This document shows positions 7,591 through 50,077 of a stretch of 64,000 bases of DNA, one piece after another (position 1 is the first letter of the stretch; each line of letters opens with the position of its first letter). This DNA comes from Escherichia coli. Lineage in GTDB: Bacteria > Pseudomonadota > Gammaproteobacteria > Enterobacterales > Enterobacteriaceae. The notes below the pieces were generated by a model. The model ran no database searches and was not told where the DNA came from. It saw nothing but the letters and a program-made list of their open reading frames with translations. The stretch is taken from assembly GCF_048403405.1 (NCBI RefSeq), contig NZ_CP183129.1; one strand, written 5' to 3'. The position numbers and the translations under genes were made by a program.

Positions 7591-8322
7591 TCAGGCTGTT
7601 ACCAAAGAAGTTGCAACCTGGCGCTCATCAGAAATAATGTGCGTTACCTCATCCAGATGCCCGATGCGGGCTTCCCCTGAACGATTAAATTTACTTTTAT
7701 CAATCAATAACAACGATTGCGCGGCGCGTTTTAATAGCATTGATTTGTAATCAGCGTTGATGGCATTGGAGTCCCACAGTGCGCCGCTGCTATCGATCCC
7801 TTCACAAGAAAAAATAAACAGATCGATTTCCAGCGATTTAAGTTGGGAAATCAGCGAGGGATTGACGTAACAGCCATATTTGCGCTCAAGTGTGCCGCCG
7901 GAACTGATTAGTTGAATGCGTTCGCGTTTACCGAGTTCATGGCAAATCGGATGGCTATTGGTGAAGACCTGGATGTTGATGTCAGGCAACTGGCGTGCCA
8001 GATACCAGCAGGTTGAACTGGCGTCTAAGGCTATCACCATCCCTTCTTCAATCCACGCGAGCGCCTCGCGCGCGATATCTGCTTTATGCGCATAATGGCT
8101 TTTCAGCCGGATGTGAAAGGGATCGCCACTGTCTTGATTTTGACGGTGGATATATTTAGCGCGCCCATGATTGCGCAGAATTTTACCCTGCGTCTGTAAT
8201 TCATTGAGATCGCGACGAATGGTTTCTTTACTGACCTTTAGCTGTTCAGAAAGAGCTTCCGTGGTCAGGCTGGTATGGTTCAGCAGCAGGTCGACTATCG
8301 CTTGCTGGCGTGCCGCTTTCAT
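7591..8322 (-). CDS. fucR: DeoR-family activator of the fucose regulon
   Basis: Matches FucR; start set at the ATG (8322, MKAARQQAIV..., 243 aa) rather than the upstream GTG at 8331; N-terminal HTH, C-terminal sugar-phosphate binding domain. Confidence 0.88.
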   Translation of the reverse strand: MKAARQQAIVDLLLNHTSLTTEALSEQLKVSKETIRRDLNELQTQGKILRNHGRAKYIHRQNQDSGDPFHIRLKSHYAHKADIAREALAWIEEGMVIALDASSTCWYLARQLPDINIQVFTNSHPICHELGKRERIQLISSGGTLERKYGCYVNPSLISQLKSLEIDLFIFSCEGIDSSGALWDSNAINADYKSMLLKRAAQSLLLIDKSKFNRSGEARIGHLDEVTHIISDERQVATSLVTA

Positions 8323-10330: not shown

Positions 10331-12106
10331 TTAACGCTTGTACAACGGGCCGTAGTTCTGGCAAGCGCGGTAATCCTGGCCTTCAATATCCATGCCGTGC
10401 GCGGCCCAGGCAGAAGGACGATATACTTTGGTCTCTTCAACGTTGTGCATACATACCGGGATACGCAGCATGGAGGCGAGAGTGATAAAGTCTGCGCCAA
10501 CGTGGCCGATGGTTAGAACCCCGTGGTTAGCGCCCCAGTTCGCCATTACCGAGTACACATCCGTAAACGGCCCTTTACCGGTGAGGCGCGGTGCAAACCA
10601 GGTGGTTGGCCAGGTTGAGTTGGTGCGTTTGTTGAGGATGTCATGCACATCATTCGGTAACTCAACGCTCCAGCCTTCCGCGATTTGCAGTACCGGGCCC
10701 AGGCCTTTGATGATGTTGACACGGGTCATGGTGAACGGGACGCCGCCTTCGGTAAGGAAGCGGGAAGAGTAACCGCCGCCACGGAAGTATTCGTGGATCG
10801 CCGGGCACCATTCGGTAGCGGCGAGGCAAGCGTCAGCCTCTTGCTGAGAGATTTCCCAGTGTGGCTTCATCGTCGGGTTACCTTCGCTGTCGCGTTGTTT
10901 ACAGGAACCGTCCAGCGCAGCAGAACCGGAGTTGATCAAATGGATGATGCCGTGTTCTGCCAGTCCATCCAGTTTATGCCCCGTTACACGTTCAATTGCT
11001 TCTGGTGACCAGTAGGTACGCACATCGGCAAATACCTGAGCGGTGCCGGTGAGCTGGTGACCCATTAGCATTGCCACGCCGTTAAGACTGTCGTTTTCAG
11101 TCGCCACGACAAAGGGTTCGCGCACGCCATTCCAGTCAAATGAACTGTTGAGGATCGCTTCGGCGGTGTCACCATTGGGATATTGATCGGTCCAGTGACG
11201 TTGCCCCTGGAAGCCCGCAGCGATGGCGTTGTAGCCAAGTGATTCTTCCACGCGACCGATATCGGCCAGTTTGCTGTTGCCTTGCATCATGTCGCGGATA
11301 CACATCGCCATCAGTAAACTTTCGCGCAGAACTGCGCGGCTTTGCTCGGCATTTCGTTGATACTGTTTGTTATTTTCATCTTCGCCATAGCGGAAGTTTT
11401 TATCAGCCCAGGCCAGCGCCATTTCCAGTTCGGCTTCGTCGTAAATCTTCTGATCGATACGGCGACGCAGTTCGGTCATATCCACCGCCTGGACTTTCAT
11501 TCCCAGCCAGGATTCAAAGAAGTTGTGATCAACGATGGAACCAGCGATACCCATCGAAACGCCGCCCAGCGACAGATAGCTTTTACCTTTCATGCTGGCG
11601 ACGGCCAAACCGGCGCGGGCAAAGCGCAGCAGTTTTTCTTCAACATCGGCAGGAATCGATGTGTCATCGGCATCCTGAACGTCATGACCGTAAATGGAGA
11701 ATGCCGGGATGCCTTTCTGGCTGTGAGCTGCCAGAGCCGCTGCCAGGTAAACAGCGCCGGGACGTTCAGTGCCGTTAAAGCCCCAAATGGCTTTCGGGCG
11801 GGTTGGATCCATGTCGATGGTTTCACTGCCATAGCACCAGCAAGGCGTTACCGTAATGGTGAGGCCTACATTCTGGCTGCTGAATTTTTCTTCGCAAGCA
11901 GCGGCTTCAGCCATACCCGCGATACAGGTATCGGAAATGACACACTCGACGGCAGCTCCGCAGGCATGGCGCAGTTTCTCGGTCAGCAATGCAGCCGTGG
12001 CTTTCGCCATATTCATTGTTTGTTCTTCAAGCGACTCACGAACACCCATGCGACGACCGTCAATAACCGGGCGGATACCAATTTTCGGTAAGCTGATTTT
12101 TTTCAT
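10331..12106 (-). CDS. fucI: L-fucose isomerase
   Basis: 591 aa [19 protein letters not shown]... matches FucI. Confidence 0.95.
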
Positions 12107-12138
12107 TACTGATTCCTCACTTTATTCGGAAAATATGT

Positions 12139-13455
12139 TCAGTTAGTTGCCGTTTGAGAACGGAAACGGGCAAAGATAAAGATGACTGCGAAGCAGAGTG
12201 CCGGGATCAGTTCGGCAGTGGGGATGTTGCCCGCTGCGTCACTGACAAAACCCATGACCGGAGTGACAATACCGCCGCCAATAATGGTCATAACGATGAA
12301 GGACGAACCGTATTTGGTGTCCTGGCCGAGATTCTTAATGCCCAGCGAGAAGATTGTTGGGTACTGAATCGACATAAAGGCACTGCATAATGTCAGGGCT
12401 ATTAAGCCCACATGACCGCCAGCGAAGGCTGAGATCAGGCACAGTGCCATAGCGATTAATGCGTAGGCTGCCAGGACTTTGTGTGGTGCGAAGCGACTGA
12501 TGAGCCAGGTACCGGTGAAACGACCAATAAAGAAGCACACCATGGTTCCGGTTAAATAGTTAGCGGCAAAGCCTGCGGTCATACCTGGAATTTCTTCTAC
12601 AGCGTAGCGAATCAAATAGCTCCAGCAGGCCGTTTGCGCGCCGACATAGCAGAATTGCGCTAATACCGCCCAGCGCCAGTGACGAATACGCGCCAGACGA
12701 GAAAGCGATGCGGAGAACGATCCTTGTTTGGCGTCACTGTGATTATCACTCTGCAATGCCGGGAATTTCGTCAGCATGATCAGCAGGGCGACCAGTAACA
12801 CGATAGCCACGATGATCATATAAGGTGTCTGTACCGATAATACCAGGCTGTGTTTATACGCACTCAATTGCTCTGGAGACATTTTATCGAGAACGTCTTG
12901 CGATTGATGTGGCACGTTAGACAAAATAAGACTTTGTCCAAAGACAACCGCGATAATTGCGCCAAACGAGTTAAATGTTTGCGCAAGATTTAAGCGGAAG
13001 TGACCACTGCTTTCCGGCCCTAATACCGTAACAAAAGGGTTTGCGGCAGTTTCCAGACAACCTAATCCGGCTGCAATAATAAATAGGCCAACTAAAAATA
13101 AGGTGTAGTTCATTATTTCTGCAGCGGGCCAGAATAATGCAGCGCCCAAGGCATATAAAAATAATCCGGTAATAATCCCTGCTTTATAACTGAGTTTTTT
13201 CATCAATATCCCAGCAGGGATTGGGATAATGAAATAACCAAAGTAAAAGGCCGATTGGATCAGGCCAGCCTGGAAATTTGTCAGCGTAAAAGCCTGCTGG
13301 AATTGAGGTAATAAAATGTCGTTAAGGTTATTGGCTACCGCCCAAAGAAAAAACAGTGAGCACAGCAGCGCGAATGGAATAATGTAACTTCTGCTTTGCC
13401 CTGCATCTTTATCTACCGCACGGTAACTCTGCGTTTGTATTGATGTGTTTCCCAT
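12139..13455 (-). CDS. fucP: L-fucose:H+ symporter (MFS)
   Basis: 438 aa, 12 predicted TM segments, matches FucP. Confidence 0.95.
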   Translation of the reverse strand: MGNTSIQTQSYRAVDKDAGQSRSYIIPFALLCSLFFLWAVANNLNDILLPQFQQAFTLTNFQAGLIQSAFYFGYFIIPIPAGILMKKLSYKAGIITGLFLYALGAALFWPAAEIMNYTLFLVGLFIIAAGLGCLETAANPFVTVLGPESSGHFRLNLAQTFNSFGAIIAVVFGQSLILSNVPHQSQDVLDKMSPEQLSAYKHSLVLSVQTPYMIIVAIVLLVALLIMLTKFPALQSDNHSDAKQGSFSASLSRLARIRHWRWAVLAQFCYVGAQTACWSYLIRYAVEEIPGMTAGFAANYLTGTMVCFFIGRFTGTWLISRFAPHKVLAAYALIAMALCLISAFAGGHVGLIALTLCSAFMSIQYPTIFSLGIKNLGQDTKYGSSFIVMTIIGGGIVTPVMGFVSDAAGNIPTAELIPALCFAVIFIFARFRSQTATN

Positions 13456-13643
13456 AGCATCCTCTTAGGTTCAGAAGCTTAAGCACGTAATCGGTTATGT
13501 TTTCAAAAGTGCAAAACCAGCGAGTTCGGGCTTCATATCAGTGAATATTTGCCTGTCAGAAATGAACTCATGGATTCATTTTCAAATAAAAAACGCTCTG
13601 TAATATGACGGCGGTCACACTTATTAGCTGGGAGGTGACTTTA

Positions 13644-13659
13644 TGTGACTACCATCACT
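13644..13659. promoter_or_regulatory. CRP binding site in the divergent fucPIK / fucAO control region
   Basis: TGTGActaccaTCACt, 9 of 10 match to TGTGA-N6-TCACA; the fuc regulon is known to be CRP dependent. Confidence 0.6.
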
Positions 13660-13776
13660 TTAATAATCGAAATTTCATGCCCGTTTCAGAAAATAAATCA
13701 TAAAAAACACAAACCCGATGACCGTATTAATTGTTTGTGCCGAAAACGGGCATTTCTGGCGAGGGGGAATGGAAAA

Positions 13777-13812
13777 ATGACCGTTTTGATAAATATTTTT
13801 AAGAGCGGTCAT
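13777..13812. promoter_or_regulatory. Candidate FucR operator: inverted ATGACCG half-sites
   Basis: atgaccg (13777-13783) and its reverse complement cggtcat (13806-13812) flank a 22-bp AT-rich spacer; a third direct copy atgaccg lies at 13718-13724 and a related tgacggcggtca at about 13606-13617. Confidence 0.35.
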
Positions 13813-14001
13813 TTTTAATAGGGTTATAAAAAGAGAACTTGCGGTTATTTACTATGATTAGTTGAACCAGGTCACAAAATATAAGCTTGTGAATTTCTTT
13901 CTGGTTAATCAGGAAGAAGATGGTGGGTAATTAAACGGCTAATTCAATAGTGTGAAAGGAACAACATTATTGCCCTGTTTTGAATCAGAGAGAGGTAGCT
14001 A

Positions 14002-14649
14002 ATGGAACGAAATAAACTTGCTCGTCAGATTATTGACACTTGCCTGGAAATGACCCGCCTGGGACTGAACCAGGGGACAGCGGGTAACGTCAGTGTACGT
14101 TATCAGGATGGGATGCTGATTACGCCTACAGGTATTCCATATGAAAAACTGACGGAGTCGCATATTGTCTTTATTGATGGCAACGGTAAACATGAGGAAG
14201 GAAAGCTCCCCTCAAGCGAATGGCGTTTCCATATGGCGGCCTATCAAAGCAGACCGGATGCCAACGCGGTTGTTCACAATCATGCCGTTCATTGCACGGC
14301 AGTTTCCATTCTTAACCGACCAATCCCCGCTATTCACTACATGATTGCGGCGGCTGGCGGTAATTCTATTCCTTGCGCGCCTTATGCGACCTTTGGAACA
14401 CGTGAACTTTCTGAACATGTTGCGCTGGCTCTCAAAAATCGTAAGGCAACTTTGTTACAACATCATGGGCTTATCGCTTGTGAGGTGAATCTGGAAAAAG
14501 CGTTATGGCTGGCGCATGAAGTTGAAGTGCTGGCGCAACTTTACCTGACGACCCTAGCGATTACGGACCCGGTGCCAGTGCTGAGCGATGAAGAGATTGC
14601 CGTAGTGCTGGAGAAATTCAAAACCTACGGGTTACGGATTGAAGAGTAA
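14002..14649 (+). CDS. fucA: L-fuculose-1-phosphate aldolase (class II)
   Basis: 215 aa MERNKLARQIIDTCLEMTRLGLNQGTAGNVSVRY... matches FucA. Confidence 0.95.
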   Translation: MERNKLARQIIDTCLEMTRLGLNQGTAGNVSVRYQDGMLITPTGIPYEKLTESHIVFIDGNGKHEEGKLPSSEWRFHMAAYQSRPDANAVVHNHAVHCTAVSILNRPIPAIHYMIAAAGGNSIPCAPYATFGTRELSEHVALALKNRKATLLQHHGLIACEVNLEKALWLAHEVEVLAQLYLTTLAITDPVPVLSDEEIAVVLEKFKTYGLRIEE

Positions 14650-46174: not shown

Positions 46175-47452
46175 TTACTTGCTGCTAGCCATAGCAGGGG
46201 CGCTATCAGCAGTACGAATTTTTTGGAACAGCAAAAAGGTAAAGACGATCACCATGGCAAGCGCCGCCATGCCCATCAGCCACATATTGCGGTAGGCTTC
46301 TGCAGCGGGCAGGGTGTCTTGCCAGTAGCCGATAATCGGGTAAACGAAGACATCCGGCAGGAATCCAATCACCGAACAAATACCTACCGTGGTGCCCATA
46401 ATGTAAGACGGTGTTCTCGCTTCGCCAGGGCAGGCCCAGTACAGCCCGCGTGAGGCGTAACAGGTGAATCCCAGCAGTAAAATCAGGCCAATCCCCATCG
46501 CGACCGATTGCGGGTTAGAGTTCGTGACGAGCAGGGCAGTTAACGCCAGCAAGCCGAGTACGGAAAGGATTTGGATCACGCGGGTAGGGGATTTCACTTT
46601 GCTGTAGGTGGAGATAATGCCACCAAGTGGGCCGCACAGTGCGCGGAAGATTTTGTTGATCACAATCCCCATGTAGCTCGCCGCCACCAGCGACATGCCG
46701 TACATTTCGGTCAGATAGTTGGTGGAGTAACTCAGAATGGCGTAGATGGTGAAGACACCAAAAATCACCATGCTGCAATACCAGGTGGTGCTGATGCGCA
46801 AAACAGCCAGGATGTCGCTAAGCTGGAATGACTGTTTTTCTTCGTTATTGGTATTGCGCAGGTTGTTGTTATCGCTAACAAAAAACCAACACAAAATGCC
46901 CAGCAGAATGTAAACCACACTATAGATAATAATGACCGTTTTCAGGCTGGCGCTGTCATCCGGTGCAAAGCGAGAAAAGACCCACATGGTAAACACCGCC
47001 AGCGACATTACACCGACGCCGCGCAGCCCTTCCATCCAGCCCATAATTTTCCCTTGCTCGCTATGATCGCCCAGCAACGAGGCGGCTTTAATCGACACCG
47101 ACCACAGCATTAAAATCGTCGTTATCGCAAAGGCGACCTGAATACAGAGCATTACCCACAGCGGTGGATATGTTGCCATTAACAGACCCAGTAATCCGGT
47201 AATGATCATCGCGGAAGTAATCATTTTGCGGTGTGAAAATTTATCGGCAATAACGCCGCTGGGGGCATAAAGAATAATAGCCGCAATACCAAAGGTACTC
47301 ATTATTAAACCTATCTCGGTATTGCTGAATCCCATAAATTTCGCCATGGGAATTTGATAAATATAACGTAAATAAGCCAGGTCGAAACTAACGCCGCCGC
47401 TAAAACTAATTATCGCGAGGGTTATCCAACGGCGATATGAGTTGTGTTGCAT
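46175..47452 (-). CDS. yqcE: MFS transporter (uncharacterised)
   Basis: 425 aa, 12 predicted TM helices; matches YqcE. Confidence 0.88.
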   Translation of the reverse strand: MQHNSYRRWITLAIISFSGGVSFDLAYLRYIYQIPMAKFMGFSNTEIGLIMSTFGIAAIILYAPSGVIADKFSHRKMITSAMIITGLLGLLMATYPPLWVMLCIQVAFAITTILMLWSVSIKAASLLGDHSEQGKIMGWMEGLRGVGVMSLAVFTMWVFSRFAPDDSASLKTVIIIYSVVYILLGILCWFFVSDNNNLRNTNNEEKQSFQLSDILAVLRISTTWYCSMVIFGVFTIYAILSYSTNYLTEMYGMSLVAASYMGIVINKIFRALCGPLGGIISTYSKVKSPTRVIQILSVLGLLALTALLVTNSNPQSVAMGIGLILLLGFTCYASRGLYWACPGEARTPSYIMGTTVGICSVIGFLPDVFVYPIIGYWQDTLPAAEAYRNMWLMGMAALAMVIVFTFLLFQKIRTADSAPAMASSK

Positions 47453-48622: not shown

Positions 48623-50077
48623 ATGTCTTTATCTCGCGCAGCGATTGTCGACCAGCTAAAGGAAATTGTTGGTGCAGATCGCGTAATTACCGATGAAACA
48701 GTATTAAAGAAGAACAGTATTGACCGTTTTCGCAAATTTCCGGATATTCATGGCATTTATACTTTGCCGATTCCGGCAGCGGTCGTAAAACTCGGTTCCA
48801 CAGAACAAGTATCCCGTGTGCTGAATTTTATGAATGCGCACAAAATTAACGGTGTGCCGCGTACCGGTGCTTCCGCTACCGAAGGTGGGCTGGAAACCGT
48901 TGTGGAAAACTCGGTGGTGCTCGACGGCTCTGCCATGAATCAAATCATTAATATTGATATTGAGAATATGCAGGCCACGGCGCAATGCGGAGTTCCGCTG
49001 GAAGTGCTGGAAAACGCGTTGCGTGAAAAAGGTTACACCACGGGGCATTCTCCGCAGTCAAAGCCGCTGGCGCAGATGGGCGGCCTGGTAGCAACCCGCA
49101 GTATCGGGCAGTTCTCCACACTCTACGGCGCAATCGAAGATATGGTCGTTGGTCTGGAAGCAGTATTGGCTGATGGCACCGTAACACGCATTAAAAACGT
49201 ACCACGCCGCGCGGCAGGCCCGGACATTCGTCACATCATCATCGGCAACGAAGGTGCATTGTGCTATATCACTGAAGTAACAGTGAAAATCTTTAAGTTC
49301 ACCCCGGAAAACAACCTCTTCTACGGCTATATCCTGGAAGACATGAAAACCGGCTTCAACATCCTGCGTGAAATCATGGTGGAAGGGTATCGTCCGTCGA
49401 TCGCTCGTTTGTATGACGCTGAAGATGGCACCCAACACTTCACCCATTTTGCCGACGGAAAATGCGTGCTGATCTTTATGGCTGAAGGTAACCCTCGCAT
49501 TGCGAAGGCGACGGGCGAAGGGATTGCTGAAATCGTGGCACGTTACCCGCAATGCCAGCGAGTGGACAGCAAGCTGATCGAAACCTGGTTTAACAACCTG
49601 AACTGGGGACCGGATAAAGTAGCTGCCGAACGTGTGCAGATCCTCAAAACCGGCAACATGGGCTTTACCACCGAAGTGTCCGGCTGCTGGAGCTGCATTC
49701 ACGAAATCTACGAAAGCGTTATTAACCGTATTCGTACCGAGTTCCCGCACGCCGACGACATCACCATGCTGGGCGGTCACTCCTCTCATAGCTATCAGAA
49801 CGGCACCAACATGTACTTCGTCTACGACTACAACGTCGTTGACTGTAAGCCGGAAGAGGAAATCGACAAGTACCACAATCCGCTCAACAAAATCATCTGC
49901 GAAGAAACCATTCGCCTCGGTGGTTCGATGGTGCACCACCACGGCATTGGTAAACATCGCGTTCACTGGAGCAAGCTGGAACACGGCAGCGCGTGGGCGT
50001 TGCTGGAAGGGCTGAAAAAGCAGTTCGATCCTAACGGCATTATGAATACGGGTACTATCTATCCGATTGAAAAATAA
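48623..50077 (+). CDS. ygcU: FAD-linked oxidase (alkyldihydroxyacetonephosphate-synthase / D-lactate dehydrogenase-like)
   Basis: 484 aa; FAD-binding PCMH-type domain; matches YgcU. Confidence 0.88.
   Translation: MSLSRAAIVDQLKEIVGADRVITDETVLKKNSIDRFRKFPDIHGIYTLPIPAAVVKLGSTEQVSRVLNFMNAHKINGVPRTGASATEGGLETVVENSVVLDGSAMNQIINIDIENMQATAQCGVPLEVLENALREKGYTTGHSPQSKPLAQMGGLVATRSIGQFSTLYGAIEDMVVGLEAVLADGTVTRIKNVPRRAAGPDIRHIIIGNEGALCYITEVTVKIFKFTPENNLFYGYILEDMKTGFNILREIMVEGYRPSIARLYDAEDGTQHFTHFADGKCVLIFMAEGNPRIAKATGEGIAEIVARYPQCQRVDSKLIETWFNNLNWGPDKVAAERVQILKTGNMGFTTEVSGCWSCIHEIYESVINRIRTEFPHADDITMLGGHSSHSYQNGTNMYFVYDYNVVDCKPEEEIDKYHNPLNKIICEETIRLGGSMVHHHGIGKHRVHWSKLEHGSAWALLEGLKKQFDPNGIMNTGTIYPIEK

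Follow-up and report, generated by a model that had tools for sequence, protein, structure and literature searches.

Divergent control regions that depend on CRP together with a specific activator are well known in E. coli and include malEp/malKp (MalT plus CRP), araBAD/araC, rhaSR/rhaBAD, and melAB. The fuc control region is like these in that asymmetric activator boxes, in both orientations, share the intergenic region with CRP sites and in the need for both CRP and the specific activator. It is unlike them in that the activator belongs to the DeoR family and the boxes appear to be distal (about −110 to −240), with CRP bound close to the promoters. Members of the DeoR family are mostly repressors. 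The operators of DeoR, GlpR, AgaR, and UlaR overlap promoters, serve repression, and consist of short palindromes or tandem repeats. They have in common with those of FucR a multisite arrangement and oligomeric regulators that sense sugar phosphates, but in the FucR boxes the CGGKCA core is asymmetric, and these boxes are paired at 29 to 30 bp, lie far upstream, and serve activation.

The closest described system is the fuc regulon of K-12 itself, with OFucR2 and OFucR3 (OR0 to OR3; PMC11011485, PMC11894529), which has the same locus, regulator, and motif as the DNA examined here. FucR with fuculose-1-phosphate has been shown by others to activate both fuc operons together with CRP. The DAP-seq consensus for FucR (Baumgart 2021, Nat Methods), in the form quoted in PMC11011485, is G/A-C/T-C/G-A-A-A-A-CGG-T/G-CA-T-T (..AAAACGGKCATT), and CGG and CA are given there as its most conserved positions. 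Zhang et al. (IJMS 2024; PMC11011485) defined two sites, OFucR2 (ccgaaaaCGGtCAtt) and OFucR3 (ttaagagCGGtCAtt). A DAP-seq site was reported for OFucR2 only, and the mutants covered these two sites: in K-12, mutating OFucR2 lowered fucose-induced PfucAO activity by about 30%, while mutating OFucR3 lowered it more than 50-fold and abolished induction. FucR action at PfucAO required the CRP site OCrp2, on which both FucR sites depended (PMC11011485). A second paper (PMC11894529; NAR 2025) locates “all four known” FucR sites between an IS5 target and fucA and assigns OR0 and OR1, as putative sites, to fucPIKR and OR2 and OR3 to fucAO; its supplements contained no OR0 or OR1 sequences. Our literature search found no published DNase footprint or EMSA of FucR, the evidence consisting of DAP-seq and promoter mutagenesis, and located an Enterobacterales FucR motif (footprint, SELEX, DAP-seq, or RegPrecise) only in the two Zhang/Saier papers. 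A PDB search returned no structure of FucR or of a close full-length DeoR-family protein.

The fuc locus and its regulator

The window that we analysed is a 64-kb stretch of DNA containing the E. coli fuc locus, with a gene order that includes fucR, fucU, fucK, fucI, fucP, fucA, and fucO. Gene coordinates were taken from the annotation of an identical genome.

7591-8322, minus strand: fucR, “L-fucose operon activator” in the annotation of the identical genome
12139-13455, minus strand: fucP
14002-14649, plus strand: fucA

The original prediction had proposed a DeoR-type regulator, FucR, for repeats seen upstream of fucA. The window does encode such a protein: the fucR product matches the Pfam domains HTH_DeoR (E = 6.6e-23) and DeoRC (E = 1.6e-45). 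The fucP-fucA intergenic region (13456-14001, 546 bp) is the divergent fucPIK/fucAO control region. An 801-bp stretch around the repeats has a match in 5041 of 5426 complete E. coli genomes, invariably between fucP and fucA. Compared with K-12 MG1655, the intergenic region differs at 16 of its 546 positions. Of these, a single one is inside a box, the one that we call S3, at the K position, where variation is tolerated. Scanning the intergenic region for sigma-70 promoters and terminators gave no sites, which is consistent with activator-dependent promoters.

Candidate FucR boxes between fucP and fucA

We consider it highly probable (roughly 85%) that the ATGACCG/CGGTCAT repeats are FucR boxes and form a five-box array between fucPIK and fucAO. 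The boxes and one degenerate element are as follows.

13677-13683, minus strand: S1, aaaCGGGCATg, oriented toward fucP
13702-13713, plus strand: S1′, a conserved degenerate element, AAAAAACACAAA; aaaaCCCACAg in most other genera
13718-13724, minus strand: S2, ataCGGTCATc, oriented toward fucP (ATGACCG on the plus strand)
13740-13754, plus strand: S3, which is OFucR2, ccgaaaaCGGgCAtt, core at 13747-13753
13777-13783, minus strand: S4, tcaaaaCGGTCATttt, oriented toward fucP
13799-13813, plus strand: S5, which is OFucR3, ttaagagCGGtCAtt, core at 13806-13812

Three copies of ATGACCG had been put forward as candidate FucR operators, and we found them exactly as claimed, at 13718-13724 (plus), 13777-13783 (plus), and 13806-13812 (minus). 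Their proposed role also held up, as they match the DAP-seq motif; the copy at 13806 is OFucR3, and those at 13718 and 13777 are conserved in position and orientation. The list was incomplete, with S1 (13677) and S3 (13747), both CGGGCAT here, having been missed. For S3, this was because the core is CGGGCAT in the window versus the exact CGGTCAT of K-12, a T-to-G change at the variable position that the consensus allows; the G allele is carried by 8 of the 11 Escherichia sequences sampled. The S1 core is likewise CGGTCAT in most other genera. S5 is identical to the published OFucR3 over all 15 bp.

All five boxes conform to the DAP-seq motif, in that CGG and CA are invariant, the position between them is T or G, and the 5′ flank is A-rich, a flank that a CGGNCAN scan of the intergenic regions found on every one of them. 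S1 to S4 read (a/t)aCGG(G/T)CAT, and S5 reads gagCGGTCAT. They lie in the fucP-fucA intergenic region of a genome that encodes FucR, and they are kept in orthologous control regions and scarce in non-fuc controls. Using 210 unique orthologous box contexts, we built a position weight matrix (PWM) whose consensus, AAAA-CGG-K-CA-TTT, agrees with that from DAP-seq. The five boxes were all among the nine best PWM matches of the 64-kb window, with S4 as the top match (score of 21.8). Further strong matches occurred at unrelated sites (46932, inside yqcE; 48720; 1286; and 9056), so the motif alone is no proof of FucR binding.

Two of these unrelated matches are described here for their own sake. One (tgaaaaCGGTCATtat; 46932-46938, minus strand; PWM score of 20.9) lies inside the MFS transporter gene yqcE, and the other (cgaaaaCGGTCAAtac; 48720-48726, minus strand; PWM score of 16.4) lies between ygcW and ygcU. 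Both could be chance occurrences or additional FucR targets in an uncharacterised sugar-gene cluster.

Counts over the whole window would by themselves suit the view that the repeats arose by chance or from the composition of an AT-rich intergenic region and have no regulatory meaning. CGGKCAT is at chance level (26 versus 20.6 expected) and ATGACCG is only mildly enriched (14 versus 7.7 expected), with five copies of the latter motif in fucP/fucI coding sequence. It is the clustering that is exceptional. In 1000 first-order Markov simulations of the window, not one had three ATGACCG copies in 95 bp or five CGGKCAT copies in 136 bp. The coding copies are without the flanks and have low PWM scores, and the chance view has already been refuted by conservation over 46 genomes and by the published mutants of S3 and S5, which leaves it with almost no probability.

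The coding sequence of fucI and fucP (11473-12582) holds five exact ATGACCG/CGGTCAT copies in 1.1 kb, far above the window average. We rejected these as operators; since they are without A/T flanks and score low with the PWM, they are probably a coincidence of codon usage. As a sixth box, CGGTTAT at 13842-13848 was also rejected, being CAGTTAT in K-12 and poorly conserved.

CRP sites and promoters

The CRP sites and the mapped fucAO promoter elements, with no strand assigned to the former, are as follows.

13601-13622: OCrp0, taaTaTGAcggcggTCACActt, containing the palindrome at 13606-13617; identical to the site in PMC11894529
13641-13662: OCrp1, TGTGA at 13644-13648 and TCACT at 13655-13659
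13858-13879: OCrp2, ttagtTGAaccaggTCACAaaa, about −70.5 from the fucA transcription start
13929-13934, plus strand: PfucAO −10 element AATTAA, mapped from PMC11011485
13939, plus strand: fucA transcription start (C), mapped from the 5′ RACE of PMC11011485, 63 nucleotides upstream of the ATG
13948-13969: OCrp3, an accessory site for PfucAO according to PMC11011485

OCrp0 to OCrp3 are identical in sequence to the K-12 sites. OCrp0 is a conserved island in 26 species and is present in most orthologues, and OCrp1 and OCrp2 are conserved islands as well. The “good CRP site” of the original prediction (13644-13659) is TGTGA-N6-TCACT and proved to be the published OCrp1, which adjoins OCrp0 and lies between the IS5 target and fucA (PMC11011485, PMC11894529). 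OCrp2 has the published sequence in the window and is essential for PfucAO, its mutation causing a 350-fold loss (PMC11011485). With the start at 13939, its location at −70.5 is class I-like.

The same prediction had pointed to a palindrome, tgacggcggtca (also tgacGGCGgtca), at 13606-13617 as a further candidate FucR operator. The sequence is indeed there. If every element in that prediction were a FucR operator, tgacGGCGgtca would act as a close inverted pair of half-sites, and it does contain CGGTCAC, which has both invariant parts of the FucR core, CGG and CA. The spacer of a CRP site is normally not constrained by CRP, yet the CGG in this spacer is conserved across genera. Set against this is the identity of the surrounding 22-mer (taaTaTGAcggcggTCACActt), which is OCrp0: it reads TATGA-cggcgg-TCACA at 13604-13619, with half-sites that match at 4/5 and 5/5 positions, and the palindrome is its centre. 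Mutating the TGA and TCACA motifs of OCrp0, or deleting crp, abolishes the CRP-dependent fusion promoter Pfsn, which is FucR independent, and no FucR site is placed upstream of the IS5 insertion point, where the palindrome sits (PMC11894529). Moreover, although the core is present, the 5′ flank is tgg, tga, or cgg and not aaa. Because the palindrome is the centre of OCrp0, we assign it to a validated CRP site and not to a FucR operator, and we regard the alternative as very unlikely. Thus, the overall interpretation that had been offered stood for the three 7-mers as FucR sites and fell for the palindrome.

The CGGTCAC in the right half of OCrp0 (13612-13618) has counterparts in the OCrp2 equivalents of several loci in our set (L015, L018, L019, L021, L023, and L040). 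It recurs in the right half of OCrp0 and OCrp2 in many genera and resembles the FucR core CGGTCAT. This conservation of CGG inside a CRP spacer could reflect hybrid CRP/FucR recognition or common descent.

On the fucP side, OCrp0 would be centred at about −41.5 of the fucPIK promoter. If it is a class II site there, transcription of fucP would start near 13570, and the boxes would be at about −110 to −240. A start near 13570 is consistent with a published remark that the fucP start is a T. On the fucA side, the published PfucAO −35 element, TTGtgA, is placed at −96 to −91 (PMC11011485), where the window (13906-13911) reads TAATCA; TTGTGA is found at −115 to −110 (13887-13892), 36 bp before the −10 AATTAA. 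This sequence does not seem to fit the published −35 assignment.

Conservation and spacing of the boxes

A FucA search of genome contigs gave 80 Enterobacterales loci, 46 of which have a divergent fucP, and we compared the intergenic regions of these 46. The boxes keep their position and orientation across them, and the same five-box order and orientation is found in Escherichia, Klebsiella, Citrobacter, Salmonella, Raoultella, Kluyvera, Hafnia, and Yersinia. When 26 species are aligned, the boxes (S1 included) and the CRP sites form conserved islands, and the rest of the sequence has diverged. Among 11 Escherichia sequences, all boxes are invariant save for the K position of S3, and polymorphism is concentrated in the OCrp0-OCrp1 spacer, the S1′-S2 junction, and the S3-S4 linker. 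S4 is invariant in Escherichia and has its S5 partner at 29 to 30 bp in every genus; S2 has a conserved ATTAATT flank and is inverted with respect to S3 at 29 bp in almost all species. Strict boxes have a density per 550 bp of 3.6 upstream of fucA versus 0.12 in neighbouring coding DNA. The density is 0.5 ahead of FucA paralogues that have no divergent fucP, with Edwardsiella loci as exceptions. The Edwardsiella loci L042, L048, and L054 have no close FucP; their upstream transporter is 40% identical to FucP, and they carry 3 to 4 FucR-type boxes. This suggests that the FucR regulon in Edwardsiella may reach a different transporter.

Spacing is also conserved within the array, except at one place. 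Adjacent minus-plus pairs are 29 bp apart in 70 of 82 cases and 30 bp apart in another 10 (80/82 in total), and S1 and S2 are separated by 41 or 42 bp in 35 of 37. At loci where S5 failed the pattern, a degenerate version was present with the spacing exactly preserved. The CRP sites, too, lie at fixed distances, as measured between centres: OCrp0 to OCrp1 is 39 to 40 bp (40 bp in nearly all species), OCrp1 to S1 is 28.5 bp, and S5 to OCrp2 is 58.5 to 59.5 bp in all genera. The S3-S4 linker (plus-minus) is variable, with lengths between 11 and 52 bp for true box pairs. From these fixed distances and the one variable linker, the control region reads as two rigid modules joined by a variable linker, with OCrp0, OCrp1, S1, S1′, S2, and S3 in the module facing fucP and S4, S5, OCrp2, and the promoter in that facing fucA.

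A natural rearrangement of the control region is an IS1 insertion in E. coli strain E3 (L090, NZ_CM130010.1, 1740-2568), at the equivalent of the part of the window left of 13763. The IS1 replaces the fucP start, the fucP promoter, OCrp0, OCrp1, and S1 to S3, and S4, S5, and the fucAO promoter are retained.

Published truncations of PfucAO bear on which boxes matter to that promoter. A 5′ end at −270 (V5; 13732 in the window) left full activity, one at −206 (V6; 13796), which is without S3 and S4, left about 70% of the induced activity, and one at −166 lost induction (PMC11011485). Since V5 is fully active, S2 (and S1) are dispensable for fucAO, and since V6 keeps about 70% without S3 and S4, a lone S5 works at PfucAO. 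These results lend themselves to the view that only S3 and S5 are functional and that S1, S2, and S4 are look-alikes or sites for another factor: deleting S1 and S2 (V5) or S4 and S3 (V6) costs fucAO only the effect of losing S3, and direct site mutagenesis has been confined to S3 and S5. In our literature search, we found no direct FucR binding data (EMSA, footprint, or ChIP) for S1, S2, or S4. The fucAO reporters, however, are uninformative on fucPIK, which also needs FucR and so must have sites, and PMC11894529 assigns it two putative operators here. The conservation of S1, S2, and S4, at fixed spacing and orientation, equals that of S3 and S5 and reaches from Escherichia to Yersinia and Photorhabdus, and no sequence in the window matches the motif better than S4. 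We therefore find it very unlikely that the array has only two working boxes.

Returning to the five-box reading, the motif match, conservation, and spacing argue that S1, S2, and S4 are likely to be genuine FucR boxes. Because they are oriented toward fucP and are dispensable for fucAO in V5 and V6, they probably serve the fucPIK promoter. In the mechanism that we propose, FucR, the DeoR-family activator that responds to fuculose-1-phosphate, would recognise AAAA-CGG-K-CA-TTT boxes. When fucose is metabolised, FucR carrying fuculose-1-phosphate would occupy the boxes and aid CRP and RNA polymerase at both promoters. The boxes lie in the middle of the intergenic region, and the CRP sites adjoin the promoters (OCrp0 and OCrp1 on the fucP side and OCrp2 and OCrp3 on the fucA side).

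A possible paired operator unit

Due to the constancy of the inverted spacing, the basic operator unit could be an inverted pair, ATGMCCGTTT-N16-AAACGGKCAT, with centres 29 to 30 bp apart in a rigid 36-bp unit. S4 and S5 in E. coli form a 44-bp palindrome (13773-13816) with arms that are 82% complementary. The conserved inverted-pair spacing suggests that one two-fold symmetric FucR oligomer may bind each pair. S1′ lies exactly 29 bp from S1, at the expected place of an inverted partner box, and Photorhabdus has a canonical attCGGTCAT at that position; on this comparison, S1′ is possibly a FucR half-site. The S1/S1′ unit would then have one half that is degenerate in the Enterobacteriaceae and intact in Photorhabdus.

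Two points weigh on the other side. The inverted pair is not required for fucAO, where V6 with S5 alone supports about 70% of induction, and 29 bp from centre to centre is unusually long for one dimer, which counts against a pair model. We hold the following only tentatively, as one joint reading that falls somewhat short of even odds. The true FucR operator would be the rigid long-spaced inverted repeat ATGMCCGTTT-N16-AAACGGKCAT and not the single 15-bp box, and the region would contain three such units, S1/S1′, S2/S3, and S4/S5. These would be set in the modules OCrp0-40 bp-OCrp1-28.5 bp-S1...S3 and S4-29 bp-S5-59 bp-OCrp2, with a free linker between them. The minus-strand boxes would drive fucPIK and the plus-strand boxes fucAO, and S4 would be a box that the literature has not recognised.

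Discussion

The FucR/fuc system was already known and largely described, and the finding of its operators here is a rediscovery. Only modest additions are made here, namely a fifth and perhaps a sixth box, the inverted unit at 29 to 30 bp, the modular layout, and a likely unnamed S4. Where the two Zhang papers speak of four sites and give sequences for OFucR2 and OFucR3 only, we describe five boxes and a further, degenerate element. Provided that the published sites are numbered in map order, as OCrp0 to OCrp3 are, the box without a published name is probably S4 (13777). The text of the Zhang papers, as far as it is available, contains neither the 29- to 30-bp spacing of the inverted pairs nor the split into two modules. 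For the fucPIK promoter, the least-studied half of the fuc regulon, the comparative work gives a testable architecture. The pair model predicts that spacing within a pair matters and that the S3-S4 linker does not.

The window also bears on how the regulon is rewired by insertion. In K-12, the IS5 target CTAG lies between OCrp0 and OCrp1, at −374 to −371 from fucA, and all propanediol-positive IS5 insertions land there (PMC11894529). The corresponding position in the window (13628-13631) reads CTGG. CTAG was present in 3 of the 11 Escherichia sequences sampled (K-12, ESY002, and SW071619), and the same three carry T in OFucR2. Among these 11, K-12 is a minority haplotype with T in OFucR2 and the CTAG target, and it may be that only this CTAG/T haplotype offers the classic route of activation by IS5. 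Because the haplotype is a minority one, most E. coli lineages, the strain of the window among them, may be unable to gain growth on propanediol by the classic IS5 route.
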